From: Candidatus Nezhaarchaeales archaeon
GTDB lineage: Archaea; Thermoproteota; Methanomethylicia; Nezhaarchaeales; WYZ-LMO8
Assembly: GCA_038887515.1 (NCBI GenBank)
Contig: JAWAKK010000001.1
Coordinates: 710,205-774,204, forward strand
Direction: 5' to 3'
DNA length: 64,000 bases
How positions within the stretch are numbered: position 1 is the stretch's first letter; each line of letters starts with the position of its first letter. The position numbers were made by a program, and so were the translations under genes. Positions 2,990-58,805 of this stretch are shown here, one piece after another. Under the pieces are notes generated by a model. That model worked only from the letters and a program-made list of their open reading frames with translations. It did not search any database and was not told the origin of the DNA.

Positions 2990-3739
2990 TTGAAGCTGGC
3001 CGTTTCGGGAAAAGGTGGTTGCGGTAAAAGCACTATCGTGGCGCTACTTTCCAAGGTCTTCGTAGAGATGGGCTTTAAGGTCTTGGTCGTAGACGCGGAC
3101 GAATCTAACGTAGGTTTGTTGAAGATGCTCGGCCTAGAGAACGTAAAATCATTGGTCGAAGTTTACGGCGGTCGAATAGGATTAAAAGCGGCCTTAGACA
3201 GAGGACTAGAGTTCCTACCGGACGTCAACGCCATAACTGCAGGTGAAGGCAAGCTAAGGGCTGTTAGAGTTGGCAAGATAGAGCGTGGTGGCGAGGGATG
3301 TGCATGTATATTCGGCATTCTAACTAAGGAAGTATTGAGCAAGCTGACGAGTTCAGGAGACGAGATCGTCCTGATAGACATGGAGGCTGGGGTCGAACAC
3401 TTGGGTAGAGGAATTGATCAAGTAGTTGACGCGATCCTCTTCGTAGTGGACCCAACGCTCGACTCTATAGTGCTTGCAGAGAGAGCGAACAAAATGGCTG
3501 CAGAACTAGGAGTGTCCAAGTTCATGGTCGTGCTAAATAAGATAGACTCAGAAACTGCAGAGGTGGTCCAAAGCAGATTACTAGGCTTGGGCGTTAAGAT
3601 TATTGGAAAGATTCGTTACGACCCCGAGGTCGTCAGGTCTGCGCTACTAGGCGAGACTATTAGAGCCCGTACAGCAATGGTTGACGCAGTTAATTTAGCC
3701 AAGGCAATTTTAGAGGAGTTAAGATATGGGATTAGTTGA
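2990..3739 (+). CDS. CooC/MinD-family P-loop ATPase (metal-centre maturation ATPase-like)
   Basis: Deviant Walker A GKGGCGKST at the N-terminus. ~250 aa. ParA/CooC-like architecture. TTG start. Confidence 0.65.
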   Translation: MKLAVSGKGGCGKSTIVALLSKVFVEMGFKVLVVDADESNVGLLKMLGLENVKSLVEVYGGRIGLKAALDRGLEFLPDVNAITAGEGKLRAVRVGKIERGGEGCACIFGILTKEVLSKLTSSGDEIVLIDMEAGVEHLGRGIDQVVDAILFVVDPTLDSIVLAERANKMAAELGVSKFMVVLNKIDSETAEVVQSRLLGLGVKIIGKIRYDPEVVRSALLGETIRARTAMVDAVNLAKAILEELRYGIS

Positions 3740-10525: not shown

Positions 10526-10927
10526 ATGGACAGGGGCGTAGCTTCTTCACTAGCACTCTTAGCTTCAATTATGATATTGATGAGTCAGATAAGCATAAAT
10601 GTAGCTTTCGTAGAGGTCGTAAACGAAGAGGTTGCGAAGACTGTTCAGAAGGTCGTTGAGAGGGCTCGTCTTAGTCAGCTAAACTTAGTCGTCGCTACTG
10701 AGGGTTCATCGATAATTGTGTTTAATGGTCGAGAGAGTGGGGTATCTATAACTAGCTTATCGCTATGCTACATCAACGGTAGCGTTGTGGACCTTAAAGT
10801 AGATTGGTTCATTCCAGCAAAATCTGCGTGTAAGCACCATGTTCCTTTATCCATCTCTGATTGCGTGGCAGTAATATTGGTGTTAAATGAAGGAGAAAGA
10901 ATGCTATTGCCCGTAAGTAAGGTTTAA
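10526..10927 (+). CDS. Hypothetical small protein with hydrophobic N-terminus
   Basis: 133-aa ORF from the track. N-terminal hydrophobic stretch may be a signal or TM segment. No recognisable domain. GTG start. Confidence 0.3.
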   Translation: MDRGVASSLALLASIMILMSQISINVAFVEVVNEEVAKTVQKVVERARLSQLNLVVATEGSSIIVFNGRESGVSITSLSLCYINGSVVDLKVDWFIPAKSACKHHVPLSISDCVAVILVLNEGERMLLPVSKV

Positions 10928-12114: not shown

Positions 12115-12211
12115 GGGCCCGTGGCGCAGCCCGGATAGCGCGGCGACAACCGTTAAGGTTGCCGTAAGCCTCCTAAGCCGTTGGTCGTGGGTTCAAATCC
12201 CACCGGGCCCG
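12115..12211 (+). tRNA. Intron-containing tRNA-Arg (anticodon CCU or CCG depending on intron position)
   Basis: 7-bp acceptor stem GGGCCCG/CGGGCCC. D-arm GCGC-AGCCCGGATA-GCGC. T-arm GTGGG-TTCAAAT-CCCAC. 97 nt, about 22 nt too long between the D- and T-arms. Removing nt 34-55 of the gene (genomic 12148-12169) gives a canonical loop CUCCUAA (U33, A37, anticodon CCU). A canonical 37/38 intron would give CCG with U at position 37. No CCA encoded. Confidence 0.7.
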
Positions 12212-13916: not shown

Positions 13917-14378
13917 GAACCTAAACCTTAAGCTGGCCTCGCGCCTTCTCGTAAGTACCTGCCCCCAAGTAATGTTCGACTTTATGGTCTTCTACGTAAT
14001 ACTTGATATTTATAAAATGCTTTTTAATTTTTACCCTTAAAAGCCCTAATTTACATAAAAAGTATCGGTACTGATGTGCTTCCCCACATAAAACTTTATG
14101 TAACATGAAGCGAGGGGGCCCGCTTTTAGGTCGACAATGTAAAGGTTTGAATACCTACGTGCAATCGTTTCAACGCACGATTTTCAAGTAATGTAAAGAG
14201 CTTTGACGTGATGTTCATTTATTTGAAGTAAAGTTTATTGGGATCCTTCTAAAGGAGTTTTCCCTATGGGAGGGAGACAAAGGACGACGCTACTGGAGAT
14301 TTTTGAAGAGAAGAAGAGTGGAACCGAGAAAAAAGCTAAAAAGTAGAAAGCCGTGAAAAATAAAAATGCGAAGTGTAA

Positions 14379-14398
14379 GGGGGGGGGGGGGGGGGGGG
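14379..14398. repeat. G20 homopolymer tract
   Basis: Twenty consecutive G at 14379-14398, read directly. Lies 31 nt upstream of the ATG at 14429. Overlapped only by an implausible poly-Gly N-terminal extension of the track ORF. Confidence 0.95.
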
Positions 14399-14428: not shown

Positions 14429-15415
14429 ATGTCTCAGAAGCACAACGCCGTGGCAGAGAAGCTCTCAGAATATTGTAGATCTAATAAAGCTATAACCTCT
14501 TTCCTACAAGAAATGGTCCTAAGAGGTATTAGCGAAATAAGACCTATCATATCGAGTAACGTAGAATACCCCGAACTTTCAGAATTCTTTGGCAAAGAAG
14601 CCAGTAAGATGCTTGAAGTGATGATTAGGGATGGCATACTTAAAGGCGTGGTCGTTGATAGGATATTGATGTGCCCCGAGTGCAACGCAATAACAGTAAG
14701 GACGCGCTACTTATGTCCTAGCTGTAAGAGCTTTAACGTTGAGCGTGTCTCGCTTATAGAGCACATAATTTGCGGCTTTATTGGATCAAACAGGCTATTC
14801 AAGAAAGGTGAAAGCGAAGTGTGTCCACGCTGTGGCCGTACCTTAAAGAGGGCTCAAGTGGACTGGAGGATCATAGGTATGACCTTTGAATGCTACGATT
14901 GCGGACTCATGTTTGATGAGCCCAAGATAGCCCACAAGTGTCTACCAAACGGTCACGAATTCGACCCAACGAATTCGAAGTACGAAGCCGTTTACAAGTA
15001 CGTGATCAAAGACGAGGTCGTGAAAATGGTACAAGAAGGCTTCCTGGTAACTTCTACCATTCATCAAGTCCTCGCATCGTCAGGATACGAAGTCCATGTC
15101 GACGGGGCCGTAAGAGGCCTTTCTGGCGTCGACCATAGATTTAACGTCGTAGGATCAAAGGACGGAAAGTTGACAGTAATCGAAACTAGCAACTTGCAAT
15201 CGGGCAGAGAGCAGTTAATGCAGATGGTCGCTAAGGTCATAGACACCAAACCTTCGCGAGCACTATTAGTAGTGCTTTCTCAAAGCGAAGAGGGTTTAAG
15301 AGAGCTTGAATCTCTTGCCTCATCGTTAAACATACGACTTATTGCGGTCAAAAACTTAATGGAAATAGGGGAAGCTATCCGGCGGATATTAAGTGAGGAA
15401 AGCGAAAAATCTTAA
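14429..15415 (+). CDS. Multi-zinc-ribbon protein, candidate regulator of the adjacent type IV pilus locus
   Basis: Start moved to ATG 14429 (GGAG about 10 nt upstream), dropping the poly-Gly extension. Three CxxC pairs (CPECN...CPSCK, CPRCG, CYDCG) follow an N-terminal helical region. C-terminal ~130 aa of unknown fold. No confident family assignment. Confidence 0.5.
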   Translation: MSQKHNAVAEKLSEYCRSNKAITSFLQEMVLRGISEIRPIISSNVEYPELSEFFGKEASKMLEVMIRDGILKGVVVDRILMCPECNAITVRTRYLCPSCKSFNVERVSLIEHIICGFIGSNRLFKKGESEVCPRCGRTLKRAQVDWRIIGMTFECYDCGLMFDEPKIAHKCLPNGHEFDPTNSKYEAVYKYVIKDEVVKMVQEGFLVTSTIHQVLASSGYEVHVDGAVRGLSGVDHRFNVVGSKDGKLTVIETSNLQSGREQLMQMVAKVIDTKPSRALLVVLSQSEEGLRELESLASSLNIRLIAVKNLMEIGEAIRRILSEESEKS

Positions 15416-15419
15416 GAAC

Positions 15420-16280
15420 CTACAGTAGCTGCGTAAAGACTAAGATCAGTACCGCCAACATCAATGCCGAGTGCCTCAACCCAGTTAACATAGACCCCTT
15501 AGATATCTTTCCTATTGCAAGCCCAGCAGCTATGGCCTCTATTACCCCGCAATAGAAAAATATGGCTTTGTAGAAATCGATGCCCCTAAATCCCTTAACT
15601 ATCTCTCCAAAACCCTCCGTAAGCGTTAGGGGGGTTACTAGCTGAGTCATCAGTATGTAGACCGTTAACAGGTACACCACAAAGCTTACGTACATGATCC
15701 AGGTGTAGGACTTGAGCTCTGTCTCCTTCTCAGTTTCGTACGATTCCAAAGCTGAGTGTAATGTGAGGAAGGATTGAAGAATGTTTAGGGCTTTAGCTCC
15801 ACTCCTCATAACCTCTACGAGTAGTATAGATACCTTATCCATGAGCGGGGTCCTAGCCATCTTAGCTATGTCAATTATCGAAATTTCAGGGTCGAACCCT
15901 AACATCATCTTGGCGACTACTCTATTCAACTCCTTTGAAAGTGGACCGTAACGGTTTTTAGCGCACTCTTTAAGGGCAATCGTCAATGGAACGCCAGTCC
16001 TCACGTAATCTACTAAGTCCCTGATGAATTGGGAGACGCCTTTCTCAATCCCTCTCTTCCATCTATGCTCAAGGTCTTCAACCACTCCAACTATAAGGCA
16101 CAAGACCAAGATCCCTACACAGAATATAGAGTTGACCAGTTGGCTAGTAGGTATGAATATTGGAGGGGCGGGAGTGTAAAGCTTCAGGTAGAATGGCAAG
16201 TAGAATATCGCCACGGCAGATGCAATGGCCACAAAGTAAGTAGCCGCCTTCTGGCGGGGAGAGAAGAAGCGCCCGTTCAT
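15420..16280 (-). CDS. Type II secretion system F-domain membrane protein (TadC/FlaJ-like, second half)
   Basis: Polytopic membrane protein with one T2SSF-like domain. Its ATG lies one codon after an in-frame TAA that ends the upstream T2SSF gene (TAA-GCC-ATG). Confidence 0.6.
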   Translation of the reverse strand: MNGRFFSPRQKAATYFVAIASAVAIFYLPFYLKLYTPAPPIFIPTSQLVNSIFCVGILVLCLIVGVVEDLEHRWKRGIEKGVSQFIRDLVDYVRTGVPLTIALKECAKNRYGPLSKELNRVVAKMMLGFDPEISIIDIAKMARTPLMDKVSILLVEVMRSGAKALNILQSFLTLHSALESYETEKETELKSYTWIMYVSFVVYLLTVYILMTQLVTPLTLTEGFGEIVKGFRGIDFYKAIFFYCGVIEAIAAGLAIGKISKGSMLTGLRHSALMLAVLILVFTQLL

Positions 16281-16283
16281 GGC

Positions 16284-17174
16284 TTACACCGACGAAAGCG
16301 CCTTGTCCATCAATACCAACACTATGGCCGCGAGTACCGGCATCAATACGAATGCTGTAAGCATAGTTACTGAGACCGGGTCAACGCCGAAGAGTTGTTG
16401 GCCGAGCATGGCCACTATGATCAGTATGGTTATGATAATTATTGGACCTACTATAACCAAGGCTACGTACATCTCGGATAGATATCCCATAGCCGTCAGG
16501 ACCTTGCGTAGAGTTGATCTCCTGAACTCTACGAGACTTTTCGCGTAGTCCATTAAGTACCCCGATACGTCTCCGCTCGAGCCTATGACGGTTGAGAGTC
16601 CTTCCAATAGTGTCTTCAAATGAATCGAGGGGGACCTATTGGCTGCTTCGTATAGGGCTTTTATGGGATCTACGTTGAATATAGCCATCTGTCTAAGTAT
16701 AAAGCAGAACGTGTTTTTAATGGCTTTCTCGCTCTCGATCTCCACGGTCCTCCTGATCAAGGTCTCGATAGTTGTTCCAGCTGAAGCCAGCGCAGCCATG
16801 TACTCCACAGTATATGGGAGGGCTCTGTCTATTCTAAAAGCCAAGTTCTTGGACCTTACATAAGGGTAGTATGCGCCTACCGTAAAAGTGACCGAGAAGC
16901 CTAGGATAGCCCATACAACTACGAGCACCAGCACATAGAGCATGGGTAGGCCCAGCACTAGGGCGTTGACTATAAAGGAAACAATGGCCGAGGCTACGCA
17001 GACCATTATGCTCATGAAGACGACTGCTGAGGCGTAAGCCGGAAATGGAATGCCCATCTGAGCCTTAAGGTACCTCTCCCTTACGAAGGAGATGAATGGA
17101 GAATTTGAGCTAGGCTTAAAGAGCCTGTAACTGAATGAGGATATGGCTTCGAGGAGACCGTTTCCCTTCGACAT
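16284..17174 (-). CDS. Type II secretion system F-domain membrane protein (TadB/FlaJ-like, first half)
   Basis: 296 aa. Cytoplasmic T2SSF-like domain (LPYTVEYMAALASAGTTIETLIRR) flanked by TM segments. Follows the ATPase gene after a 6-nt gap. Confidence 0.6.
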   Translation of the reverse strand: MSKGNGLLEAISSFSYRLFKPSSNSPFISFVRERYLKAQMGIPFPAYASAVVFMSIMVCVASAIVSFIVNALVLGLPMLYVLVLVVVWAILGFSVTFTVGAYYPYVRSKNLAFRIDRALPYTVEYMAALASAGTTIETLIRRTVEIESEKAIKNTFCFILRQMAIFNVDPIKALYEAANRSPSIHLKTLLEGLSTVIGSSGDVSGYLMDYAKSLVEFRRSTLRKVLTAMGYLSEMYVALVIVGPIIIITILIIVAMLGQQLFGVDPVSVTMLTAFVLMPVLAAIVLVLMDKALSSV

Positions 17175-17182
17175 GGCCTCAC

Positions 17183-18703
17183 CTAAGGGGTAGCTACCAA
17201 CTTTAGCAACTCACTCCTAGCCCTCTCGTAGGTTTCTCGAGGCTTTAAGTAGTAGCTTCTAATAACCTTGGCTACGTCGTCGTGCCTCGATAGGTCCTTC
17301 TTCAACATCCATTCAAGCACAACCTTCCTGTTCTCTAGTTCACTCGTAACGTTATCAAAACCTAGCCTCTTGACTATGATGCTGCCATCTGCTATCAACC
17401 TAGTGAAGGAATCGGTAAGCGGATCCCAACGATATATGGGATTTATCATGATTTCCCCGCTTCTAGGGTCTATCCCCGTGACCTCGTTTACCTCTATAAC
17501 CCTTCTAACCGTAACCCCTCTCACTTTTCTTCTAGCAACTAGTATTATGGTTTCAATCATTGGTATAAGTTCTCTAGGAACATTCATAGGCTTAGACTCG
17601 AGCCTCCTTATGGCCGCCTCTATGTTTTCAGCGTGTATGGTGCATAGACCTCCGTGGCCTGTAGCCACGGCTTGAAAGAGAGCGTAGGCTTCTTCGCCCC
17701 TGACTTCGCCGACGATTATGTAGTCGGGCCTTTGCCTTAAAGCGGACTTTAATAGGTCGAACGCCGATATCTCTGGGGCTCCATCGGTCGTGCTGGGCCT
17801 AGTAACTAAAGGGACCCAGTTCTCATGTGGGAGCATTAGCTCCCTCGTTTCCTCTATAGTTATTACCTTGGCTTCAGGCCTTATCAGGGCGGCTATAGCG
17901 TTTAGGAGAGTAGTCTTGCCGGACGCAGTTGCACCGCAAATAAGCATAGACCTCATTTGCTCGACCATAATCCATAGGTAAGCTGCTACTTCGCTCGACA
18001 AAGTACCTAACTTTATTAGGTCTATTATAGTAAACTTTTCAGGCCTATACTTCCTAATGGTAAAGGTCGACCCCCTCTTAGAGACCACGTCTAGGGTTAG
18101 GTGGACTCGATGTCCTTCAGGTAGCACGCCATCGATGACCGGCCTTGCAATGGAAACCTGCTGCTTAGCCTTAAACGACAGGGTCATGACGAAGGAGTTT
18201 AGTTCCTCCTCACTTTCAAAGGATACGTTCGTTGGAAGCTCCTCGTACTTTACGTGCCAAACGTATATTGGGATCCCGACGCCAGCGCAGCTTATATCTT
18301 CGATGTTGGGATCCCTAACTATGCCGTCTATCTTTCCGTAGCCCAGCAGGTCCCTAACTATGTAATAAAGTATCTTATCTAGGGCTTCTGAGGCCACCTT
18401 GAAGCCGTACTTCTTAATAACTTTCTTAGTTGCTTGGACTATGAAGGACCTCGCCTTTTCCGGGTCTTCTACGTCCTCTACGTCTACGTCAACCGACTCC
18501 TTGATGAACTCCTTGACCCTACGTACTACCTCCACCTCGTCCTGTAGAAGCGTTGGCTCTACGACTTCGTACCTAAGCTTCCCGACGGGATCCATTACTA
18601 TAGCTATGTGGCAGAAGGGGGGATTCACGGCGTAGAAGTCTCTTAAACGAGCTAGCTCAACTTGTTCTAAGCCCTTAGAGTCTCCAGCCCGCTTAATACT
18701 CAT
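17183..18703 (-). CDS. Type IV pilus/archaellum-family secretion ATPase (FlaI/CpaF/VirB11 superfamily)
   Basis: Walker A GATASGKTT, Asp/His boxes and typical length of 506 aa. Confidence 0.85.
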   Translation of the reverse strand: MSIKRAGDSKGLEQVELARLRDFYAVNPPFCHIAIVMDPVGKLRYEVVEPTLLQDEVEVVRRVKEFIKESVDVDVEDVEDPEKARSFIVQATKKVIKKYGFKVASEALDKILYYIVRDLLGYGKIDGIVRDPNIEDISCAGVGIPIYVWHVKYEELPTNVSFESEEELNSFVMTLSFKAKQQVSIARPVIDGVLPEGHRVHLTLDVVSKRGSTFTIRKYRPEKFTIIDLIKLGTLSSEVAAYLWIMVEQMRSMLICGATASGKTTLLNAIAALIRPEAKVITIEETRELMLPHENWVPLVTRPSTTDGAPEISAFDLLKSALRQRPDYIIVGEVRGEEAYALFQAVATGHGGLCTIHAENIEAAIRRLESKPMNVPRELIPMIETIILVARRKVRGVTVRRVIEVNEVTGIDPRSGEIMINPIYRWDPLTDSFTRLIADGSIIVKRLGFDNVTSELENRKVVLEWMLKKDLSRHDDVAKVIRSYYLKPRETYERARSELLKLVATP

Positions 18704-18794
18704 CCTAAAGCGCCTAGAAAAATCTAGAAGGCGAAGCTCAAAACTTTTCCGGAGCGAGTAAAGCCTAGCAGACGAGTTCTTTTAACGATAGATT

Positions 18795-18808
18795 TATTTA
18801 AATGGTAT
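18795..18808 (+). promoter_or_regulatory. Putative BRE/TATA element for the pilin gene
   Basis: TTTATTTAAAT about 30-40 nt upstream of ATG 18837, in the divergent intergenic region between the ATPase operon and the pilin genes. Confidence 0.3.
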
Positions 18809-18836
18809 CGCAAATTATTATCGTTCGGTGAACACC

Positions 18837-19265
18837 ATGAAGAAGGTTAAAGGGGTCTCCCCCATAGTAGCAGTACTATTACTCATAGTCATAGCTGTAG
18901 CGGCAGCTGCAATGACGTATGGCTTCGTAATGGGCTTCATAGGTGGAGCCGCAACAACTACAACAACGACGCAAGCAATGATAAGGGTAGAAGCAGTAGA
19001 TGCCACTACTGGTACTGATGCCACAGTATACGTTAGGAACATAGGCTCCATCCCTGTAACTGTCGACTTCATATATGTGTACCACGCTAATGGAACCCTC
19101 ATGAGTACACAACGGCTTTCGACTTCGATCACGATTCCTCCGGGTAATGTAGGTATAGTTTATGTCGATGGCCTAGATTTAAGTGGAGGGGTTACGTACT
19201 ACGTCAAGGTAACGACCAAGGAAGGAGCTATCGCGACATCGGAGCCCTTTAAAGTTAAAAGCTAG
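18837..19265 (+). CDS. Archaeal type IV pilin (class III signal peptide, DUF361-like N-terminus) with one beta-domain
   Basis: N-terminus MKKVKGVSPIVAVLLLIVIAVAAA matches the K-G-(V/I)SP-hydrophobic class III pattern. C-terminal ~90-aa domain is homologous to the repeats of the next gene. Start set to ATG 18837 rather than the track's GTG 18828. Confidence 0.7.
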   Translation: MKKVKGVSPIVAVLLLIVIAVAAAAMTYGFVMGFIGGAATTTTTTQAMIRVEAVDATTGTDATVYVRNIGSIPVTVDFIYVYHANGTLMSTQRLSTSITIPPGNVGIVYVDGLDLSGGVTYYVKVTTKEGAIATSEPFKVKS

Positions 19266-19411
19266 CCCGTAGTAGTGTGAGTAATACTATACGCAGTTAC
19301 TATAGTGTTTCGGGTCTAGCTTTTTTAACATACAATCAATTTTTCCTCCTTGTTATGTTTACCACAATAGTTATACCTAAAGCTGTTATAAAGAAGGATT
19401 TAGCGACGCCT

Positions 19412-20707
19412 ATGAGTGGAGGCAAGGGGATCTCTCCGATAGCTTCTACGCTATTGCTAATAATGGTTGTAGTTGCTGCTACGGTAACCACGTACAACTT
19501 AGTTATTGGACTTGTAGGAGTAACCGCTACATCGCCTCTACGATCTGTAATAAGGGTGGACGAAGTTAGCATCTCTGGTAGCGAGCTTACTGTTTACGTC
19601 AGGAACCTTGGTCCGGCTCCAATGACGCTAGATTCGGTATACGTGTACTCTGTTGACGGGGTACTAGTCGGGCGCGTTCATATTAACCCCAAAACGATAG
19701 ATGCGGGAGAGGTTGAGGCTATTACGGGCATACCAATTGGTTACTTGAAGGAGGGGGGTGTCTACTACATCAAGGTAGCTACAATGGAGGGAGCTATCGC
19801 GTCTTCCCAAGCATTTAAAGTCGGATTAGCTAAATCAGCTAAAGCTATAATAGTGATAGAAAGATTGGAGACCGAGCCAGCTACATTGAACACATTCAAT
19901 GCTACACTGTACGTCAAGAATGCGGGCGACGTCCCAGTGACGATAGACGAAGTACGCGTATACTACTCGTTATCGAAGAAGACTTTACTGGAAAGCATTG
20001 ACATTGCAAAGAGATTAAATCCTGGAGAGACTGTGAGGATCGTTATTGACAAAATACCATACGACATAGAGCGGCAGAGGCCTAGCTACGAGATTGAAGT
20101 AACAACTATAGAAGGAGTTATAGCAACTACGAAGGCTATGGTACTAGCAAGAGAAATGTTGGTAGAAACAGGATTAAGTGCGGAAGGATTCAACATAGAC
20201 GCCTCCATATACGTTATAAATTATGGCGCTGCCCCAGCAATAATAGATAAAGTACAAGTATACATCGATGGAGAGTTGGACAGTATCGTAAACCTTGGGA
20301 ACTTGTCGCTAGGTGTGACGAGTTCAACAACCATTAATTTCAACGTTACTATAGATCCAAGCAAGTCCTACTCCTTCAAGATTGTAGGAAGTGATGAGGC
20401 TTTAACGTCGTGGCGAGCAATAGTGGTAGCTGAAGCGAGTGCAACACCGATAAACGATCGCAGTTACAGCGTTACTGTTTACGTTAGGAACGTCGGCTCC
20501 ACCCCCGTAACGATTTACGGCTTGTACATACAATCTGAACGAGGGGACTTAATAGTGCCCCTGATAGATGTAGGGGAGGTGATAAAGCCAAAAGAGATTA
20601 AAGAGATAATTAATCCAATTACCCTAACGAATGGGACATACTACATATTCGTGTTTACTGATGAGCCTTGGTTTTTAGAAGCGAAGACGAGGCTAGAATT
20701 GGTATGA
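19412..20707 (+). CDS. Modular type IV pilin/adhesin with class III signal peptide and four tandem beta-domain repeats
   Basis: Internal ATG 19412 gives MSGGKGISPIASTLLLIMVVVAA, a class III signal. Four ~90-aa repeats share an xxYVRNxGxxPVTID-like core (TVYVRNLGPAPMTLD, TLYVKNAGDVPVTID, SIYVINYGAAPAIID, TVYVRNVGSTPVTIY). The 45-aa extension in the track ORF is probably not translated. Confidence 0.65.
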   Translation: MSGGKGISPIASTLLLIMVVVAATVTTYNLVIGLVGVTATSPLRSVIRVDEVSISGSELTVYVRNLGPAPMTLDSVYVYSVDGVLVGRVHINPKTIDAGEVEAITGIPIGYLKEGGVYYIKVATMEGAIASSQAFKVGLAKSAKAIIVIERLETEPATLNTFNATLYVKNAGDVPVTIDEVRVYYSLSKKTLLESIDIAKRLNPGETVRIVIDKIPYDIERQRPSYEIEVTTIEGVIATTKAMVLAREMLVETGLSAEGFNIDASIYVINYGAAPAIIDKVQVYIDGELDSIVNLGNLSLGVTSSTTINFNVTIDPSKSYSFKIVGSDEALTSWRAIVVAEASATPINDRSYSVTVYVRNVGSTPVTIYGLYIQSERGDLIVPLIDVGEVIKPKEIKEIINPITLTNGTYYIFVFTDEPWFLEAKTRLELV

Positions 20708-39761: not shown

Positions 39762-40574
39762 TTGAATCTACTTCACCTAACCGCTATTGCTAAGATTTCG
39801 TTGTGCTCCATAATTCTCGGCTTCGCATCCTTTCAGGATTGGAGGACCAGGGAGATAAGCGACGTAGTCTGGATAGTCATGGGGGGCTTTGGGGCTACGC
39901 TAACCACCATAGAGTTGTTGACCGACTTCTCTTACGGCTTCCTTCTAATGCTTGCTGCATCGGTAGCCACGTGTTTCTTCCTTGGCTTCGGCCTATACCG
40001 CTTGGGCTTCTTTGGAGGAGCAGATGCAAAGTGCTTGTGGTGTATAGGCGTAACCCTCCCCTATAACCCGCTTACCAGCCTAGGGCTTAGCCCCGTTGGC
40101 CTTCAAAACCCCATCTTCTCGATCTCAATATTCAATAACTCCATATTGACTGCCGCTTTCTTAGCGTTGGGCATCATGTGCTTTAACGCCGTAATGAAGA
40201 CGAGGCGCCATCTATTTTCAGAAAGCGAAGAAAAGAGTTTATGGAAGAGGTTCGTTGTCCTAGCATTGGGCTACAAGATGAAGATATCAAGAGTCTTAGA
40301 GAAGAAAGACTTCTACTTCCCTCTTGAGGTATTCTCACACGAAAACGGCCGTGTTAAAAGGAGATTTAAGTTTACGGCAAGGTGTATGGACGACGATCCC
40401 TACGCAGAGCTTACGAGACTTGTAAACGCTGGAATTGTAAGTGTAGACGAGGAGATATGGGTCTCTCCAGCAATCCCGCTTATAATCAACATAACAGTCG
40501 GGTTCCTGGTATCATTACTTTACGGCGACTTAGTACTATCTATAGCTAGGGCAGCCCTAAGCTTAACACTATAA
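39762..40574 (+). CDS. Prepilin/preflagellin peptidase (A24 family, PibD/FlaK-like)
   Basis: Polytopic membrane protein with the second catalytic-Asp motif FGGADAKCL and a conserved Asp in the first cytoplasmic loop (REISDVVW). TTG start. Confidence 0.55.
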   Translation: MNLLHLTAIAKISLCSIILGFASFQDWRTREISDVVWIVMGGFGATLTTIELLTDFSYGFLLMLAASVATCFFLGFGLYRLGFFGGADAKCLWCIGVTLPYNPLTSLGLSPVGLQNPIFSISIFNNSILTAAFLALGIMCFNAVMKTRRHLFSESEEKSLWKRFVVLALGYKMKISRVLEKKDFYFPLEVFSHENGRVKRRFKFTARCMDDDPYAELTRLVNAGIVSVDEEIWVSPAIPLIINITVGFLVSLLYGDLVLSIARAALSLTL

Positions 40575-51953: not shown

Positions 51954-52204
51954 AAAACGTCAGATAAAAGGATAGTAATAGCGAATACTTGAAACTTATC
52001 CATAGCATCTAGAGACGCTAAATGCGGTTTAGCAATATGCTAAGAATTAAAGGTTGATAGACAATTCAATACCGATGAGATTTTGGACCACTTACATCCT
52101 AAAAGTGTATTATTTCGCAATTTTATGTCACAATTTATATAATCTGTACTAAAAAATATTTAAATTTCGTAAATTTTCGTGTTAACAACGAGGATGTAAG
52201 AAGA

Positions 52205-53077
52205 ATGATCAAGAAAGTTGTTATTACTGCCGCGGGTCTTGGTACGAGGCTGCTACCAATAACTAAAGAGATACCCAAAGAGATGCTACCAATATGTCTT
52301 GATAATAGTAACGGTCCTACTCTTAAGCCTCTCCTTCAAGCGCTTTTTGAACAACTGTATTCGTTCGGATTTAGAGACTTTTGTTTTGTTGTTGGTAGAG
52401 GGAAGAGGGCTATTGAGGATCATTTTACTCCGGATTGGAATTTCGTCAATAGTTTAAGAAGTAAGGGTAAATTAAACATTGCCGAGGAATTGGAAAATTT
52501 CTATAGGATGATAGAAAGCTCAAGGATACTATTCGTTAATCAACCCGAGCCAAAGGGGTTTGGGCATGCAGTTTTAATGGCTAAACCTTTTGTGGGGAAA
52601 GAGCCCTTCATGGTTTGTGCTGGAGATACTTACATAATTTCAACTAATAACGACTTCTTAAAGAGGTTGGTGTCGGCTTTTTCAGATGATGTTACAGCGG
52701 CAATTCTTCTTCAGAGGGTTGAAGATCCTTGGAATTATGGCGTTGCTCTTGTTAAGCCGAGTAATAGCTTATTATTAGATATAATAGAGGTTGTCGAAAA
52801 ACCCAAAGCTCCTAAGTCAAATATAGCAATAATGCCATTCTACATATTCAAGCCGGAAATAATAGGGGTATTAGAGAATTTGGAGCCAGGCGTTGGCAAT
52901 GAATACCAGCTTACAGATGCCATTCAAAAGATAATTATGATGGGTCGAAGAGTTGTTGGTGTCTTACTTGAAGAAGACGAATTGAGGCTCGATATAGGAA
53001 CGCCAAAGACATACATCGAGGCTTTAAAAGTGTCTTACGAATATCATCGTAGGAGGAATTATAATGTCACATATTAA
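52205..53077 (+). CDS. Sugar-1-phosphate nucleotidyltransferase (GalU/RmlA-like)
   Basis: N-terminal VVITAAGLGTRLLPITKEIPKEMLPI nucleotidyltransferase signature. 290 aa. Confidence 0.8.
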   Translation: MIKKVVITAAGLGTRLLPITKEIPKEMLPICLDNSNGPTLKPLLQALFEQLYSFGFRDFCFVVGRGKRAIEDHFTPDWNFVNSLRSKGKLNIAEELENFYRMIESSRILFVNQPEPKGFGHAVLMAKPFVGKEPFMVCAGDTYIISTNNDFLKRLVSAFSDDVTAAILLQRVEDPWNYGVALVKPSNSLLLDIIEVVEKPKAPKSNIAIMPFYIFKPEIIGVLENLEPGVGNEYQLTDAIQKIIMMGRRVVGVLLEEDELRLDIGTPKTYIEALKVSYEYHRRRNYNVTY

Positions 53078-54068
53078 ATTCGAAGTACGACTACCTTCAA
53101 ATCTTGAGGAGATGGTAAAAGATAAAACATTTCTAATAACCGGGGGGGCTGGTTTTATTGGAAGCTGGCTTACAGAAACTTTAGTTGAACTAGGAGCAAA
53201 AGTAACCGTTTTGGATAATCTCTCATCAGGAAGTATCGAGAACATTAAACATTTGTTTAATTGCGGGAACTTCGACTTTATCGAAGCCGATGTTTCAAAC
53301 TACAAAAACAATAGAATTTATGATTACATAGTTCACGCAGCAAGCATCCCAGCGCCTGATATGTACGTTACGAGACCCGTTGAGACAATGTTACCAAATA
53401 GCATTGGTACGTTAAACATCTTAGAAGTCTCAAGAAAGTATGGAAGTCGAGTCTTATTTCTATCGACTTCTGAAGTTTATGGAGATGCGAGAGTTGTCCC
53501 AACCCCAGAAAACTACTGGGGATATGTAAATCCTATAGGTATAAGGTCTTGTTATGACGAATCCAAGCGCTTTGGCGAAGCATTATGTATGGCATATTTT
53601 AGACAGTATGGTATTGACGTTAGAATTGCCCGAATTTTTAATACGTACGGGCCAAGGCTTGACCCAAATGCTTGTTATGCAAGGGTTATTTCTAAATTTA
53701 TAATCCAAGCCTTAAGAGGTGATCCTATAACAATTTATGGTGATGGAAAACAAACTCGAAGTTTCCTGTATATAACTGATGCGATTGAGGCACTAGTTAA
53801 GTTCCTTTTAATAGATGGGCTAAGTGGAGAAGTTGTTAATATAGGCAGTCCGCACGAAATAACGATATTAGAGTTGGCTAACATTATAAAAAGACTCACC
53901 GGTTCTAATTCTCCAATAGAGTTTCATCCACCAAGACCTGATGATCCAAAAAGAAGGTGCCCCGATATTTCTAAGGCACAGAGAATTTTGAACTGGAACC
54001 CCAAAGTTTCATTACACGATGGACTCGAACTTACCATTGCATGGTTTAAGAAGGTGATAATAATATGA
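53064..54068 (+). CDS. NAD-dependent sugar-nucleotide SDR, UDP-glucuronate decarboxylase (UXS)-like
   Basis: Extended SDR. GGAGFIGS Rossmann motif. YxxxK catalytic region. ARIFNTYGPRL motif characteristic of UXS/ArnA-type decarboxylases. Confidence 0.7.
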   Translation: MSHIKFEVRLPSNLEEMVKDKTFLITGGAGFIGSWLTETLVELGAKVTVLDNLSSGSIENIKHLFNCGNFDFIEADVSNYKNNRIYDYIVHAASIPAPDMYVTRPVETMLPNSIGTLNILEVSRKYGSRVLFLSTSEVYGDARVVPTPENYWGYVNPIGIRSCYDESKRFGEALCMAYFRQYGIDVRIARIFNTYGPRLDPNACYARVISKFIIQALRGDPITIYGDGKQTRSFLYITDAIEALVKFLLIDGLSGEVVNIGSPHEITILELANIIKRLTGSNSPIEFHPPRPDDPKRRCPDISKAQRILNWNPKVSLHDGLELTIAWFKKVIII

Positions 54069-55423
54069 CTGTCATCTCGTACATAGGCATGGGATATGTA
54101 GGACTGGCGAGCGCTGTATGCTTGGCATATAAAGGCTTTAGGGTAATAGGTGTAGACATAGATCCTTTAAAAGTTAAAATTATAAACTCGGGTAAGCCGC
54201 CATACTATGAGCCTAAAGTTGAAGAACTTTTAAAAGATGTGTTAAAAAAAGACCTTTTTTATTGCACCACCGATTACATCAAAGCGGTGCAAGGTTCAAA
54301 TATAACGTTTATAGCTGTTGGCACTCCAAGCAATCCGGATGGAAGCATAAATCTTGATCAAATAAAAAGGGCTGCGAAATACATTGGAGAGGCGCTAAGA
54401 GACAAACATGAATATCACTTAGTAGTTGTCAGAAGCACCGTTGTCCCTGGAACTACGGAGAAAGTGGTTAAACCCATAATTGAGCAAGCTTCAGGAAAGA
54501 GTTGTGGTAGTGAGTTCGGCTTGTGCTTCAACCCAGAATTCCTTAGAGAAGGTTCGGCTGTGGATGATACCTTTAATCCTGATAGGGTAGTTATAGGTGA
54601 ATTTGATGAACGGTCTGGCAATACGCTTGAAAAACTATATAGGGACTTCCACGGAGATGAAGTACCTGTAATCATGAGAACTAATATAGTTAATGCTGAG
54701 CTCATAAAATATGCTAATAATGCATTTTTAGCGATGAAGGTTAGTTTCATCAACATGATAGCAAACCTATGCCAAAAGCTTCCAGGAGCTGACGTTGAGG
54801 TTGTAGCCAAGGGTATAGGTTTAGATAAGAGAATAGGACCTCTCTTTCTTAAAGCCGGGGCTGGATGGGGGGGAAGCTGTTTTCCAAAAGACCTTAAAGC
54901 ATTACTTCATTTCGGCTTAAAGAGTGGCGTAGAACTACCGCTCGTTGAATCAACGTTGAAGGTCAATGAAAATCAACCCTATAAACTCATTGAATTAGCC
55001 AAAAGTCTTATTGGAACCTTGCGTGGAAGGAGGGTTTCCATACTTGGGCTAGCTTTTAAAGCTGGAACGGACGATATGAGAGAGGCCGTTTCAATAAAGG
55101 TTGTTGAGAGACTTTTAGACGAGGGTGCCAACTTAATAGTATACGATCCTAAAGCCATGGAAAACGCTAAGAAAATCTTCGGTAGTCGTATTGAATATGC
55201 TAATAACATTGAAGAGTGCTTAAAGGGATCTGAGTGCGCAATAATAGTTACAGAGTGGGATGAATTTCGTAAGTTAACACCCGAGCGTTACATAGAGCTA
55301 ATGAAAATTCCAGCAATCGTAGATGGGAGAAGAATTTACGATCCACGCGAGTTCTCACGTAAACTTAGATTTGCAGCTATAGGGTATGGACAAGAAACTT
55401 CGGCAACAATTCATTATTCATAA
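54065..55423 (+). CDS. ugd: UDP-glucose 6-dehydrogenase
   Basis: N-terminal GMGYVGL Rossmann motif. Catalytic GGSCFPKD motif. 452 aa. Overlaps the upstream gene by 4 nt. Confidence 0.85.
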   Translation: MTVISYIGMGYVGLASAVCLAYKGFRVIGVDIDPLKVKIINSGKPPYYEPKVEELLKDVLKKDLFYCTTDYIKAVQGSNITFIAVGTPSNPDGSINLDQIKRAAKYIGEALRDKHEYHLVVVRSTVVPGTTEKVVKPIIEQASGKSCGSEFGLCFNPEFLREGSAVDDTFNPDRVVIGEFDERSGNTLEKLYRDFHGDEVPVIMRTNIVNAELIKYANNAFLAMKVSFINMIANLCQKLPGADVEVVAKGIGLDKRIGPLFLKAGAGWGGSCFPKDLKALLHFGLKSGVELPLVESTLKVNENQPYKLIELAKSLIGTLRGRRVSILGLAFKAGTDDMREAVSIKVVERLLDEGANLIVYDPKAMENAKKIFGSRIEYANNIEECLKGSECAIIVTEWDEFRKLTPERYIELMKIPAIVDGRRIYDPREFSRKLRFAAIGYGQETSATIHYS

Positions 55424-55843
55424 CCAAATATGATAATTTCATTTTTACTACGAGAAGGAATTTTTAAAATACATTTTTAAGTTTGTAAAATCTTCTAAAA
55501 AGTTCTGTCAAAAACAAGATGAAGTAAAAGCAGGATATACTCCAGTATTTAATAAATATTGGAGTTTTAGAATTAGACGAATGTTGAGGCGTTTACCTAA
55601 ATCTCCTTTAAGTTCGCAAGGACTTACCGTTTTATAACTTATAATTATTTATTACCTTATAGCTATGCTACTGATGTACCATTACCTGATAGTCAAGTTC
55701 CAGTGGTTGAGATCACTTTGGATGAGCCCTCATGATATTAAATTATAGCTTTAATTGTTGAATTAAGAATGCTGGCTAATCATCAACGTACTCGCCTATT
55801 TTACGAATACTAATACTTAAGCTTACTTTGATTAAAAGCAAGG

Positions 55844-55877
55844 TAAGATATAAGTAGTGTTAAGATATAAGTAGTGT
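55844..55877. repeat. Perfect 17-nt tandem duplication (TAAGATATAAGTAGTGT x2)
   Basis: Read directly. Two adjacent identical 17-mers in the AT-rich intergenic region upstream of the disrupted GT2 gene. Confidence 0.85.
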
Positions 55878-55894
55878 AAGGATGCAACTGTTAA

Positions 55895-57039
55895 GGTAAG
55901 TCAAGGAAGGGGGATTTTGATATAAAAACTGCCATTCTAGTGCCTACATATTGCGGTGCAGATGTATTACCATACTTACTTGAGAGCTTAATAAAAAGTG
56001 GATCTATGCCAGACATGATATTATTTGTTGTAAAGGCTTGTCCTATATCTGAGCTTGAAGGAATTAAAGTTATAGAGGATTTCGTTGAAAAAACATAAAA
56101 GGTCAAACAAAAGCATCTATCATTAAATATAAAGGTCCTTACGGATTAGTTAGACAAATATTGATTGGATTAAGGACTTTATACAAATTAAATTATGACA
56201 TCGTTATATTCTTAGATGATGATTCGTACATTGTTTCTAATAAGTTTGTTGAATTACATGAAAAATGGTACGAAGTAAATGAAGTTGGTGGAGTAGCAGG
56301 TTGTATAATAGACGTATGGAAGCGTGGCGAGGACTTTGTACAAATAGCTGGAAATGTGTCTATACCTCCCAAAAGGCTTTACTTGTGGAGAGAGCCAGCT
56401 ATTAAGATTCTCAATAGGTTTATACCTCAAACATATTTTACAAAGGGAGGCTATGTTGCAGTATGTGGAAACGATACTTATCATCTTAAGAGGGGTGCAA
56501 GGCATGTATTCTCTTTACTGGGCGGCGGATCAAACATGTCAATAAGGTTAGCAGCACTTAGTTGCTTTCTGAAAGGGGATAATATCGCAAAACTTTTACC
56601 TAATACTCCAATCGCTATGAGGTACGAACAGATACTAGCTTATCACATAGTTAAAAGAGGTTACGTAATAGTTAAAGATTACAACATAAAGACTTACCAC
56701 ATATTCAGAGAAGGAGGCGAGACAAGAGCTCCTAGGAATTATCGAAGGAGTACAATTACTGCAACGGATGATTTCCTGTACTTTTACATGAAGCATTCGT
56801 ATCCATGTGATTTTTCATTTATACATAAAATTTTGGCTGTTATACAGAGGCTATATCGATCCATAGTTGTAGAACAAAAGAAAAGTAGTGATATCGAACT
56901 ACTTCTTGCCCGTCTTTTTGGTCACTTATTTGGAAATAGTGTCGGAATATGGTGGAGCCTATCGTCTAACAAAGAGTACGTATATCAATTATTTAGGAGG
57001 TATGAAAGTTTTATGAAGGGTATACTTAAGGAATCGTAA
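55895..57039 (+). pseudogene. Family 2 glycosyltransferase disrupted by a -1 frameshift in an A6 run and lacking an ATG start
   Basis: N-terminal fragment ...DIKTAILVPTYCGADVLPYLLESL...FVEKT*. Reading resumes in the +1 frame as KNIKGQTKASIIKYKGPYGLVRQILIGL...IVIFLDDDSY (DxD motif). One extra A in the A6 run at 56088-56093 would give a continuous ORF. The expected start codon position reads ATA. Confidence 0.65.
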
Positions 57040-57447
57040 TTATAATGATAGGCTTTACAACCATAAAGTAACTTATGGACCACTTTATTAATCGCATGTT
57101 TTCTCTGAAGTACTTCACCAAGAACGTTGAGATTTAAGGTCTAAGCATGCGGTTCGCCCATAAAGATCGGAAGAAGCCGAGAATAAATGCCAGTCCAAGC
57201 CTTTACCATCTTGGCTCATCTACTCTCCGGTAAAGGTCTTGTAACTAAAATCGAAAGGAACAAGTTTAGAAGTTTAGCCTATACTAATAAGCCAAAGATA
57301 TTTACGCTCTTCTTCTGAAGATTACCTCCTTCGTCGGCTTGACGTAAACAATTTCCAGACACCATACGTGATAAGCCTTATTACTTGTTTCCGATAACTT
57401 TTTTGGACGAATAGTCATTGAAGTTAAGCTCGGAGGTCGTTATTTAA

Positions 57448-58689
57448 TTGAAGAAAGCCGTTGTTTCTCACCACTTTTGGGATAGACCTGGTGGTGGGCA
57501 ACTCGTATGTAGTGCTGTGGCTTACGCTTTAAAGGTCCTCGGTTTTAACCCTGTTTTAACGTCTATTTCGTTGTTTGAGAGGGATAAGTATATTGATTGG
57601 TTCGGAATAAACTTGCAGGACTATGAAGTTATACCGTTTTTGAAATTTAGGTTGAGGGCATTTGGGATATACATGAGGCTCCTCGTTTGGGTGCCAATGA
57701 AAAAAGCCATAGAAAAGCTTAACCCGGATATAGTCTTTACTGACGAATGCACCTATAGGCCTGTAGAGAAGCTTGTCGATCGCGAGAAAACCCTATTTGT
57801 TGAGTACATACATTTTCCAATTGAAGTCTCGATTCTAGAGGAGTATAAAGGTAGTGGCTTGTACTATGGTGAGGATCCTTACCTATTAGAGCGCTATAGT
57901 AGGTTCCCCATGAACATATATTGGTGGGGGTACGCGAAGCTTCTCCCCCTCTTTCTACGCAGGAACCCGTTTGAAGTGGCTTCATTGGTGCTGACGAATT
58001 CTAAGTGGACAGCCGAAATCGCAGGAAAGATCTACGGAGAGAGACCTCAGGTGCTGAATCCACCTATAGCGCCAAACGTCGAAATAGCCCAAGAACCTAA
58101 GGTGTTCGAAGAGAGGGAGAACGCCATAGTTATGCTTGGACGCTTCTCCGAAGAGAAGAGGTACCACTGGGTTGTGGAGGAGGTTATGCCGAGACTTCGC
58201 AGAGAGCTAGGAGGTGTAAAGCTGTACGTCTTTGGTGGTGCTAGGACCAAGACCAGTATGATGTATCTAAGCGAAGTAGGAGAAAGGGCTACAAGGAGAG
58301 GCTTAAAAGTGTCTAATAACATTAAAGACTTGGCTGACATATATCTGGTACCTGACGCTCCCAGAAAAGTCATAAACAATGTAATGGACAAGGCGAAGGT
58401 CTTTTTACATGCAACCATAAACGAGCACTGGGGCATAGCGCCAGCCGAAGCCATGGCTAGAGGGTTACCAATAGTAGTTCACAAATCGGGTGGAACTTGG
58501 AGCGATCTTGCTGTCGAAGGTGAGTACGGGCTGGGGTATAATAATATCGAAGAGGTCATAGAATTGCTGTCTAAACTTCTAAATGACGAAAACGTGTGGA
58601 GACATTACTCGAAAAGGTCTATCCTTAAAGCAGGAGATTTAACAATAATTAAGTTCATAGACAGGCTCAAAGGGTTGATTAAAGCTTGA
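57448..58689 (+). CDS. Family 4 (GT-B, retaining) glycosyltransferase
   Basis: C-terminal EX7E-type motif region (NEHWGIAPAEAMARGLPIVVHKSGG). 413 aa. TTG start. Confidence 0.75.
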   Translation: MKKAVVSHHFWDRPGGGQLVCSAVAYALKVLGFNPVLTSISLFERDKYIDWFGINLQDYEVIPFLKFRLRAFGIYMRLLVWVPMKKAIEKLNPDIVFTDECTYRPVEKLVDREKTLFVEYIHFPIEVSILEEYKGSGLYYGEDPYLLERYSRFPMNIYWWGYAKLLPLFLRRNPFEVASLVLTNSKWTAEIAGKIYGERPQVLNPPIAPNVEIAQEPKVFEERENAIVMLGRFSEEKRYHWVVEEVMPRLRRELGGVKLYVFGGARTKTSMMYLSEVGERATRRGLKVSNNIKDLADIYLVPDAPRKVINNVMDKAKVFLHATINEHWGIAPAEAMARGLPIVVHKSGGTWSDLAVEGEYGLGYNNIEEVIELLSKLLNDENVWRHYSKRSILKAGDLTIIKFIDRLKGLIKA

Positions 58690-58805
58690 GATCATTGTTT
58701 ATTAATTTATTAAGAGGGATTTTGAAAGATGGCTTTTTATCAACTACATTCTTAGTTTTTGATGGGATTCTCTAGAGGTTAATAGAATTGGTAATGTTCT
58801 AGAGA

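Follow-up and report, generated by a model that had tools for sequence, protein, structure and literature searches.

Type IV pilus (T4P) loci in which a FlaI-like ATPase is accompanied by two platform genes and a zinc-ribbon gene were catalogued computationally in 2016, and this family is still without experimental characterization. The locus of Nitrosopumilus sp. AR2 (NC_018656, 863-871 kb) encodes FlaI (arCOG01817), two copies of TadC (arCOG01808), a Zn-ribbon protein (arCOG06883), and pilins assigned to the "FlaG/FlaF/PilA family," some of them 430 to 611 amino acids (aa) in length, and a variant of the AR2 gene set is present in "Ca. Caldiarchaeum" (Makarova, Koonin & Albers 2016, Table S4). 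Most occurrences of arCOG06883 are in thaumarchaeal T4P loci (Makarova, Koonin & Albers 2016), and the ATPase of the AR2 arCOG06883 locus is labelled "Clade_archaellum" in the clade table of Makarova et al. (2016). The domain TackOD1, which is of the arCOG06883 type, was named by Galperin et al. (2018), who noted both its association with T4P and its occurrence in REC-TackOD1 response regulators and called its function obscure. Here, we describe a locus of this family from Candidatus Nezhaarchaeales, at positions 14429 to 20707 of a 64-kb stretch (the window) of a metagenome-assembled genome (MAG); all that is said of it derives from the MAG sequence, homology, and predicted structures. It is not a new kind of system: what is new is the lineage.

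A second described system that bears on this locus is the "flagellar-like" pilus of Pyrobaculum calidifontis (2023, PMC10334743). Asn85 of its subunit (PDB 8FK7) is glycosylated, and its filaments do not supercoil. The N-terminal core helix of such "flagellar-like" pilins is 5 to 11 residues longer than that of other archaeal T4P and has a polar or charged C-terminal end (PMC10334743). As for platforms encoded by two genes, these are typical of system 1 (Epd), of subsystems 4A and 4B, and of bacterial Tad systems (Makarova et al. 2016; Sivabalasarma & Albers 2026, bioRxiv 10.64898/2026.04.22.720090).

Gene content of the locus

The locus probably encodes an archaeal type IV pilus other than an archaellum, both its assembly machine and its subunits, and adhesion is the most likely function of this pilus. 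The locus belongs to a family of TACK archaea in which a FlaI-like ATPase, a split platform, and TackOD1 travel together. The components by which archaeal type IV filaments are generally recognized (an ATPase, a T2SSF platform, class III subunits, and an A24 peptidase in the genome) are all present. At one end, on the plus strand, is the gene for a 328-aa TackOD1 protein (14429-15415; PF18551, E = 2.6e-33), which converges, across a 4-nt gap, with three minus-strand genes. These encode a FlaI-like type II/IV secretion ATPase of 506 aa (17183-18703; PF00437 T2SSE, E = 2.6e-36), platform half 1 of 296 aa (16284-17174; PF00482, E = 6.2e-12), and platform half 2 of 286 aa (15420-16280; PF00482, E = 2.7e-11), each half containing a single T2SSF domain. 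The gaps separating the three genes are 8 and 3 nt, indicating that ATPase-T2SSF-T2SSF forms an operon, of which the ATPase gene is the first. Across a putative divergent intergenic promoter region of 133 nt (18704-18836), read from the sequence, two pilin genes follow on the plus strand. The small pilin has 142 aa (18837-19265; PF07790 Pilin_N, E = 1.1e-7; TIGR02537, 27.8 bits against a cut-off of 20), and the large pilin has 431 aa (19412-20707), with an UpsA-like N-terminal module and a CARDB match (E = 4e-10). A 270-aa prepilin (class III signal) peptidase of the FlaK/PibD type is encoded on the plus strand at 39762-40574 (PF01478, PF06847).

This inventory bears out most of what an initial annotation, made from the sequence alone, had proposed. 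All six open reading frames (ORFs) of the locus lie at the coordinates and on the strands that it gave, with significant domain matches in Pfam and NCBIfam; the two T2SSF genes and the FlaI/CpaF-type ATPase are on the minus strand, and the peptidase that it placed about 20 kb away is encoded some 19 kb from the locus and matches the FlaK profile. The plus-strand gene that it called regulator-like is indeed there, and can now be named as a TackOD1 gene. Pfam was run on 56 ORFs, from 1 kb to the end of the window, with a few ORFs of the Mrp cluster outside the scan, and NCBIfam, the source of the Arl models, was run on eight of the 56.

By gene content and Pfam domains, the locus resembles the TackOD1/arCOG06883 loci of Thaumarchaeota and Aigarchaeota, with which it shares the gene set and pilins divergent from the ATPase operon. 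It differs from these loci in belonging to another phylum-level lineage (Nezhaarchaeales), in having TackOD1 convergent with the platform genes instead of upstream with the pilins, in having fewer pilin genes, and in lacking a large "surface protein" gene.

Conservation in related loci

Ten related loci (L007 to L012 and L014 to L017) were compared, and nine of them (L007, L009, L010, L011, L012, L014, L015, L016, and L017) contain the complete set of ATPase, two T2SSF proteins, TackOD1, and pilins; the only exception among the ten is L008, in which TackOD1 was not detected. In L007, L010, L011, and L017, the ATPase is 76 to 78% identical to that of the window and the flanking genes are the same, and the set also occurs at 48 to 55% ATPase identity in L009 (Nezhaarchaeota) and in L012, L014, L015, and L016 (Bathyarchaeota). 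The recurrence of the gene set from 78% down to 48% ATPase identity implies purifying selection on the whole module and argues for its function. TackOD1 is a conserved member of the pilus family and no incidental neighbor. A scan of genome contigs with the ATPase returned only relatives of 34 to 44% identity, in Thermoplasmata and DPANN archaea (L001 to L006).

The genes of L014 to L016 are all co-directional, in the order pilin, pilin-like, large class III protein, ATPase, T2SSF, T2SSF, and TackOD1, indicating that the divergent layout seen in the window arose by rearrangement of a conserved operon. The divergence emphasized in the initial annotation therefore holds for the window, as a local rearrangement. 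The TackOD1-associated pilus family is hereby extended well beyond Thaumarchaeota, to about 48% ATPase identity, and is organized as a single co-directional operon in several lineages.

Some relatives have additional genes. A single-domain KaiC/FlaH-like ATPase of 220 to 230 aa is encoded beside the platform genes in L008 (10657-11319) and L009 (10319-12175), loci with 55 to 57% ATPase identity. These KaiC proteins match the ArlH profile over its full length at 29 to 39 bits (cut-off 215), and in L009 the gene is co-directional with that for TackOD1 and lies 16 nt downstream of it. In L014 (about 52% ATPase identity), genes for CheB, CheW, and a methyl-accepting chemotaxis protein (MCP) adjoin the pilus operon, and a MinD/ParA-like ATPase is encoded nearby (L014 1-3142 and 12357-13121), a neighborhood that hints at chemotaxis-type control of the pilus family in some lineages.

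Assembly ATPase, split platform, and prepilin peptidase

Among NCBIfam models, the ATPase scores highest against FlaI (NF058587, 395.5 bits), followed by BasE (233 bits) and TadA (195 bits), and although FlaI is the best model, the score falls below its equivalog cut-off of 550 bits. The best relatives of this protein in the PDB are AfGspE (2OAP, 378 bits), FlaI of Sulfolobus acidocaldarius (300 bits), and CpaF (165 bits). Its motifs are intact, with Walker A (GATASGKT) at residue 257, Walker B (DYIIVGE) at 327, and a His box at 349 to 358. A protein from a Ca. Nezhaarchaeales MAG in NCBI is 100% identical to it.

The two platform proteins correspond to successive halves of a FlaJ-type protein. 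Platform half 1 aligns to the N-half (positions 4 to 242 of the 555 in the ArlJ/FlaJ profile) and is TadB-like, with about four hydrophobic segments; platform half 2 aligns to the C-half of FlaJ/UpsF (positions 285 to 437 of the 484 in the UpsF profile) and is TadC-like, with about five. No pairwise similarity between the halves was detectable. The order of the platform orthologues is conserved in L003 to L012, and that of N-half then C-half after the ATPase is kept, as two genes, as far as Aenigmatarchaeota (L006); in the Thermoplasmata locus L004, the halves are fused into one gene.

Apart from the peptidase at 39762-40574, no A24 peptidase was found in the window. This protein matches PF01478 (Peptidase_A24, E = 6.5e-11) and PF06847 (Arc_PepC_II, E = 1.4e-20) and aligns over its full length with the NCBIfam FlaK model at 83 bits, below the cut-off of 330. 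It has five hydrophobic segments, and the candidate catalytic aspartates are D26 (FQDWRTRE) and D88 (GGAD).

Pilins and their promoters

Both pilins have a class III signal, judged by a simple motif rule and by family conservation: Lys at -2, Gly at -1, Val or Ile at +1, then Ser-Pro-Ile and a hydrophobic helix of at least 19 residues. Among 40 aligned family members, K/R occupies position -2 in 38, G/A/S position -1 in 39, V/I position +1 in 39, Ser position +2 in 37, and Pro position +3 in 38. When Ignicoccus Iho670 (PDB 5KYH, chain start VSPVIATLLL) is aligned with the small pilin, its mature N terminus falls exactly on V7. Two class III pilins had been predicted at the outset, and both stand, with their start codons revised. 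Of the starts at 18828 and 18837, the small pilin most likely uses ATG 18837, which is preceded by a GGTGA at 18827-18831, 6 nt upstream, and the large pilin begins most likely at ATG 19412; either GTG 19277 or the start annotated by NCBI (450 aa) would give the large pilin an atypically long N-region.

A TATA-like element had also been noted in the divergent region, and its position is now corrected to TTTATTTAAA at 18793-18802, upstream of the small pilin. This box is partly conserved, reading YTTTATTW in three relatives (L007, L010, and L011), as is a GAAAAGTTTT box on the minus strand at 18740-18749, about 40 nt upstream of the ATPase ATG. For the large pilin, a TATA-like TTATAAAG at 19386-19393 stands 19 to 26 nt upstream of ATG 19412, a position suggesting that this gene has its own near-leaderless transcript. 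These putative promoters of the pilins and the ATPase are assigned by archaeal promoter rules.

The small pilin consists of the class III signal (MKKVKG|VSPIVAV...), a poly-Thr linker, and one immunoglobulin (Ig)-like domain with a single N-glycosylation sequon at N85. Its closest solved relative is the P. calidifontis subunit 8FK7, and the homology spans the whole protein (E = 1.7e-16 for the sequence by itself, improving to E = 1.5e-34 with a 30-sequence family profile). In the alignment, the N85 sequon (NGT) and that of the glycosylated Asn85 in 8FK7 (NAT) fall at one position. The family profile also matches the soluble domain of FlaG (5TUG, E = 9.6e-8) as well as pilins of Haloferax, Natrinema, and Saccharolobus, which places the globular domain in the FlaG/FlaF/PilA superfamily. 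The P. calidifontis pilin likewise has an Ig-like domain resembling FlaG. The two differ in that the small pilin contains no Cys, and hence no disulfide, and has Gly-Gly and a Thr6 linker where 8FK7 has TRATSQAEQLSAAEQ, so that the long polar-ended helix of the P. calidifontis type is not evident. Orthologues of the small pilin hold the same position in L007, L010, and L017, and by its conservation and size it is the probable major subunit. The kinship of this pilin to the P. calidifontis pilus and to FlaG bears on the origin of archaella from pili.

The large pilin begins with MSGGKG|ISPIAST... and combines a pilin module with three further tandem Ig-like domains and four sequons. Over its first 137 aa, it shares 44% identity with the small pilin (E = 2e-31), and the globular domain of the small pilin matches three more segments at 29 to 35% identity. 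In an alignment, the five domains of the two pilins share the motifs t-[VL]-Y-V-x-N-x-G-x-x-P and Y-x-[IV]-K-V-x-T-x-E-G. An AlphaFold2 model built from 40 aligned sequences has a mean predicted local distance difference test (pLDDT) score of 79, rising above 93 in domain 1, and consists of a helix (residues 9 to 38) followed by four beta-sandwiches. In Foldseek, the N-terminal module superposes on 8FK7 (template modeling score of 0.61 on the target), and the whole protein recovers tandem-Ig proteins (the extender region of a large adhesin, alpha-2-macroglobulin/complement, transglutaminase C-domains, and fibronectin).

The three extra domains of the large pilin are rare. A word-indexed search with the large pilin returned only itself; an exhaustive HMMER search of 1.84 billion representative proteins recovered relatives, with about 290 other proteins, some of them 390 to 1470 aa long, matching the pilin module alone and only two fragments (P0131 and P0132, about 40% identical) matching the three extra domains. 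In L007 and L017, relatives at 77 to 78% identity, the small pilin gene is followed directly by the L15e gene and the large pilin is missing, which suggests that it is a lineage-specific addition in which a pilin gene was duplicated and its domain triplicated. By conservation and size, it is a probable minor pilin or adhesin. The four-domain pilin offers a clean example of a pilin gene gaining an adhesin-like stalk by internal domain duplication.

P0131 is encoded on a 1.3-kb contig (L013 1-1266), the only contig found with a large-pilin orthologue. On this contig, a 1-nt frameshift splits the D1-like domain from D2-D4, which marks the gene as a pseudogene or else stems from an error of assembly.

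When every ORF was scanned for the signal motif, one more class III-signal-like protein emerged, of 133 aa, encoded on the plus strand at 10526-10927, tail-to-tail with the TFB gene. It starts with MDRG|VASSLALLAS..., and the N-terminal RG|[VI][SA]SSLALLAS is conserved in L007 and L010. A beta-rich segment ("IIVxN...NGS") is reminiscent of the pilin domain, and the alignment with the pilin family profile is collinear and weak (hhalign E = 0.004, probability 8%); neither Pfam nor NCBIfam gave a match for it. It is a possible third, minor pilin-like protein.

The TackOD1 protein

The start of the TackOD1 gene at 14429 agrees with those of homologues and with the NCBI annotation. The protein has an N-terminal helical region, three predicted Zn sites, and a C-terminal domain at about residues 195 to 328. 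Ten invariant Cys, the invariant H112, and H169, present in eight of nine homologues, are arranged as three four-ligand sites, and the Cys arrangement resembles the Zn-binding insert of PriA (Galperin et al. 2018). No transmembrane segment is predicted in the protein, which is judged from its sequence to be cytoplasmic.

In an AlphaFold2 model built from nine sequences (pLDDT of 84), residues 195 to 328 form an alpha-beta-beta-beta-alpha-beta domain, for which Foldseek recovers the restriction-endonuclease-like fold: AF1548 (1y88, E = 1e-5), the nuclease domains of Can2/Card1/Cdn1, and further matches to the R2 RLE domain, OkrAI, Bax1, and Mus81/Hef. A KaiC-like nature of the domain was considered and rejected, the fold search having given nuclease folds. 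Across seven diverse loci, G230, S232, G233, F238, K269, and D272 are invariant and an acidic residue in beta-3 is mostly kept, but the canonical first catalytic Asp is not conserved, making nuclease activity doubtful and a binding role more likely. TackOD1 is very probably a dedicated part or regulator of the type IV filament machine, and the role that we infer for it makes this protein a concrete target; the new element is the predicted restriction-endonuclease-like C-terminal fold.

Two features lie just upstream of the TackOD1 gene. A run of 20 guanines (14379-14398, plus strand) ends 30 nt before its start codon. The run is unique in the window, where 0.01 would be expected by chance, and absent from all related loci, and it may be either a two-color Illumina poly-G assembly artifact or a genuine 5' G-tract. 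Between the phosphoribosyltransferase (PRTase) gene and the TackOD1 gene is a 26-aa micro-ORF (14266-14346, plus strand), MGGRQRTTLLEIFEEKKSGTEKKAKK, which has no Pfam match; its orthologues of 28 to 30 aa in L007, L010, L011, and L017 differ mostly by synonymous changes, and a GTAAAGTTTATTGGG box some 30 nt upstream of it is conserved as well. The micro-ORF probably encodes a genuine small protein or serves as an upstream ORF.

Comparison with other filament systems

With the archaellum, the locus shares a FlaI-like ATPase, a FlaJ-like platform, a FlaK-like peptidase, class III subunits, and an Ig domain homologous to FlaG. It differs in its missing components: the Pfam scan of the 56 ORFs, together with the NCBIfam Arl models on the eight, gave no match for KaiC/FlaH (PF06745), FlaF, FlaG, FlaX, or FlaCDE, and thus for neither the ArlF/ArlG stator genes nor ArlH, ArlX, or ArlCDE. 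The sole ArlG hit on the eight ORFs scored 21.8 bits (cut-off 110) and fell within a large-pilin repeat. Neither the ATPase nor the peptidase reaches its equivalog cut-off (395 bits against 550 and 83 against 330, respectively), the platform is split into two genes, and the subunits match pilins better than archaellins. The initial annotation, which took the absence of FlaF, FlaG, and FlaH as the mark of a pilus rather than an archaellum, is thereby upheld, except that its statement about FlaG applies to a separate stator gene, the globular domain of the pilin being itself a distant FlaG homologue.

Its suggestion of an Ups-, Aap-, or Tad-like pilus did not hold: such an identity was rejected because of scores far below the cut-offs and different accessory genes, and better comparisons are offered by the TackOD1-associated loci and the P. 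calidifontis pilus. The Ups system of Sulfolobales (subsystem 4I) likewise has two pilins beside ATPase and platform genes, and it includes UpsX, which has an Ig fold and can be likened loosely to the large pilin. Nevertheless, the pilins match the UpsA model at only 40.5 and 24.9 bits (cut-off 130), UpsF is a single gene whose model the window platform matches at 25 to 28 bits against 400, and the locus has neither an UpsX orthologue nor a DNA-repair gene neighborhood. Methanococcus Epd (system 1) and bacterial Tad/Flp also possess two platform genes (EpdJ/EpdK and TadB/TadC) and an ATPase of the FlaI/CpaF superfamily. In contrast to the pilins of the window, which carry Ig-like domains, the Epd and Flp major pilins have no globular domain. 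The locus contains no EppA/TadV peptidase, the peptidase being FlaK-like and 19 kb away, and the match to CpaF (165 bits) is much weaker than that to archaeal ATPases (378 bits).

Subsystems 4A and 4B (Sivabalasarma & Albers 2026) are likewise minimal sets, in which two genes for the platform and one for the ATPase are joined by one or two pilins and, next to the major pilin, an adhesin-like protein rich in Ig domains; RecA/KaiC-like ATPases are associated with 4B. The platform genes flank the ATPase in 4B, whereas both follow it in the window locus. Results section 5 of that preprint does not mention TackOD1. A KaiC-family ATPase also occurs in the P. calidifontis locus, as in the relatives L008 and L009, but there is none in the window locus.

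Proposed function and alternative explanations

In the mechanism that we propose, both prepilins would insert in the membrane via their N-terminal hydrophobic helix, and the FlaK/PibD-type A24 peptidase would cut a six-residue leader after Lys-Gly. A hexameric ATPase would drive a heterodimeric platform, composed of the two half-size T2SSF proteins, which would lift the mature pilins from the membrane and polymerize them through their helices. The 142-aa pilin, which is kept in all close relatives and has its own TATA and Shine-Dalgarno-like sequence and a conserved sequon, would be the major subunit. The 431-aa pilin would be a low-copy minor or tip subunit whose three extra Ig-like domains could act as an adhesin or spacer, and its absence from L007 and L017 is as expected for an accessory subunit. 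TackOD1 would be a dedicated accessory or regulatory component, most economically a signal-output module acting on the pilus genes or the motor, because the domain occurs in Thaumarchaeota as a fusion with receiver domains; its nuclease-like C-terminal domain would probably be a binding module.

Several points weigh against an adhesive pilus. The evidence comes from a MAG, and the expression, processing, and filament formation are predictions from its genes. The ATPase is more FlaI-like than like any characterized pilus ATPase model, that of the analogous Nitrosopumilus locus is placed in "Clade_archaellum" (Makarova et al. 2016), and relatives have a FlaH-like KaiC (L008 and L009) or CheB, CheW, and MCP genes (L014), making functions beyond static adhesion, such as retraction, twitching, or rotation, conceivable. 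In addition, distant relatives have three class III proteins, as opposed to two here, the candidate at 10526-10927 being tentative, and the division into major and minor pilins comes from conservation and size, as the role of TackOD1 comes from inference.

These features could be taken further. We consider it unlikely that the locus represents a widespread sister lineage of the archaellum motor in TACK archaea, with a FlaI-clade ATPase, a split FlaJ, and TackOD1 as an integral cytoplasmic part that couples phosphorelay- or chemotaxis-type signals directly to the assembly or dynamics of the filament. The integral role for TackOD1 draws on its being co-operonic with the platform genes in L014 to L016, its position beside KaiC in L009, and its receiver fusions in Thaumarchaeota; if true, the locus would encode a new kind of type IV filament machine, under regulation and possibly serving motility, and would stand as a living intermediate between pili and archaella. 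Decidedly unlikely is a dynamic motor related to that of the archaellum, either rotary or working by extension and retraction, with TackOD1 and the KaiC of relatives as switch or stator-side components. The ATPase fits the FlaI equivalog model best (395 bits against 233 for BasE), its AR2 counterpart has the archaellum-clade label (Makarova 2016), the pilin is closest to the "flagellar-like" P. calidifontis subunit with a globular domain that matches FlaG, KaiC/FlaH-like genes (L008 and L009) and Che genes (L014) occur among relatives, and REC-TackOD1 fusions exist (Galperin et al. 2018). Yet the ATPase is under the FlaI cut-off, the window scans found no FlaF/FlaG, FlaH, FlaX, or FlaCDE, Gly-Gly and poly-Thr replace the polar helix extension, the helix modeled for the large pilin extends for only about 30 residues, and the P. 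calidifontis filaments are themselves not supercoiled (PMC10334743).

Two further explanations depart from a long adhesive filament in other ways. A bindosome-like or pseudopilus system would serve mainly to anchor the large Ig-repeat protein, along with further class III proteins, and expose it at the cell surface, more than to form long filaments; the large pilin does resemble a surface-display stalk of tandem Ig domains, secondary NCBIfam matches are to BasE, BasF, and BasA, and "functionalised" type IV filament machineries are argued to be widespread (Sivabalasarma & Albers 2026). We hold it to be very unlikely, in that the Bas scores are far under the cut-offs, neither a substrate-binding protein nor an ABC transporter accompanies the locus, the best relative of the small pilin is a genuine filament subunit, and close relatives without the large pilin (L007 and L017) keep the rest of the machine. 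A pilus for DNA exchange or uptake, functionally like Ups/Ced or competence pili and with TackOD1 processing or binding DNA at its base, would accommodate the PD-(D/E)xK-like fold of the TackOD1 C terminus, the PriA-like Cys arrangement (Galperin et al. 2018), and the weak matches of the pilins to UpsA and UpsB models, but it is extremely unlikely given that the first catalytic Asp is not conserved across the seven loci, that Pfam detects no Ced, helicase, or other DNA-transfer genes nearby, and that UpsA reaches 40 bits against a cut-off of 130.

The adhesive type IV pilus thus remains the best explanation and amounts to a predicted surface filament for Nezhaarchaeales, an uncultured and poorly described thermophilic lineage. 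A specialist would find nothing unexpected in it, the locus type having been catalogued already; the additions made here, the tandem-Ig pilin and the predicted nuclease-like fold of the TackOD1 protein, are modest.

Other features of the window

The genes surrounding the locus are, in the Pfam scan, housekeeping genes only: those for PRTase, a class IV aminotransferase, TFB, L15e, a radical SAM protein, and a nucleoside triphosphatase, with Mrp/Nuo-type complexes, molybdenum-cofactor synthesis, tRNA synthetases, and PolB also nearby. Rfam at the gathering threshold reports two tRNAs in the window and nothing within the locus. A scan for sigma-70 promoters and intrinsic terminators gave fewer sites than shuffled sequences; such a scan is not meaningful for an archaeon. 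ARAGORN reports a 97-nt tRNA-like gene at 12115-12211 (plus strand) with an undetermined 4-base anticodon (cgtt), which Rfam does not report at the gathering threshold; most probably it is an archaeal tRNA gene with an intron. Regulation by MinD-like ATPases has been proposed for some archaeal pilus systems; the MinD/ParA-family (CbiA) ATPase of the window (2990-3739, plus strand) lies inside the molybdenum-cofactor gene cluster and is probably unrelated to the pilus.

A block at about 52000-58700 has a G+C content of 0.38, compared with about 0.46. Its genes encode a nucleotidyltransferase, an NAD-dependent epimerase/dehydratase, a UDP-glucose/GDP-mannose dehydrogenase, and a GT1 glycosyltransferase, and two of its ORFs have no matches. 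The block is a glycan-biosynthesis island, possibly acquired horizontally, and could supply sugars for the S-layer or for pilin glycosylation.

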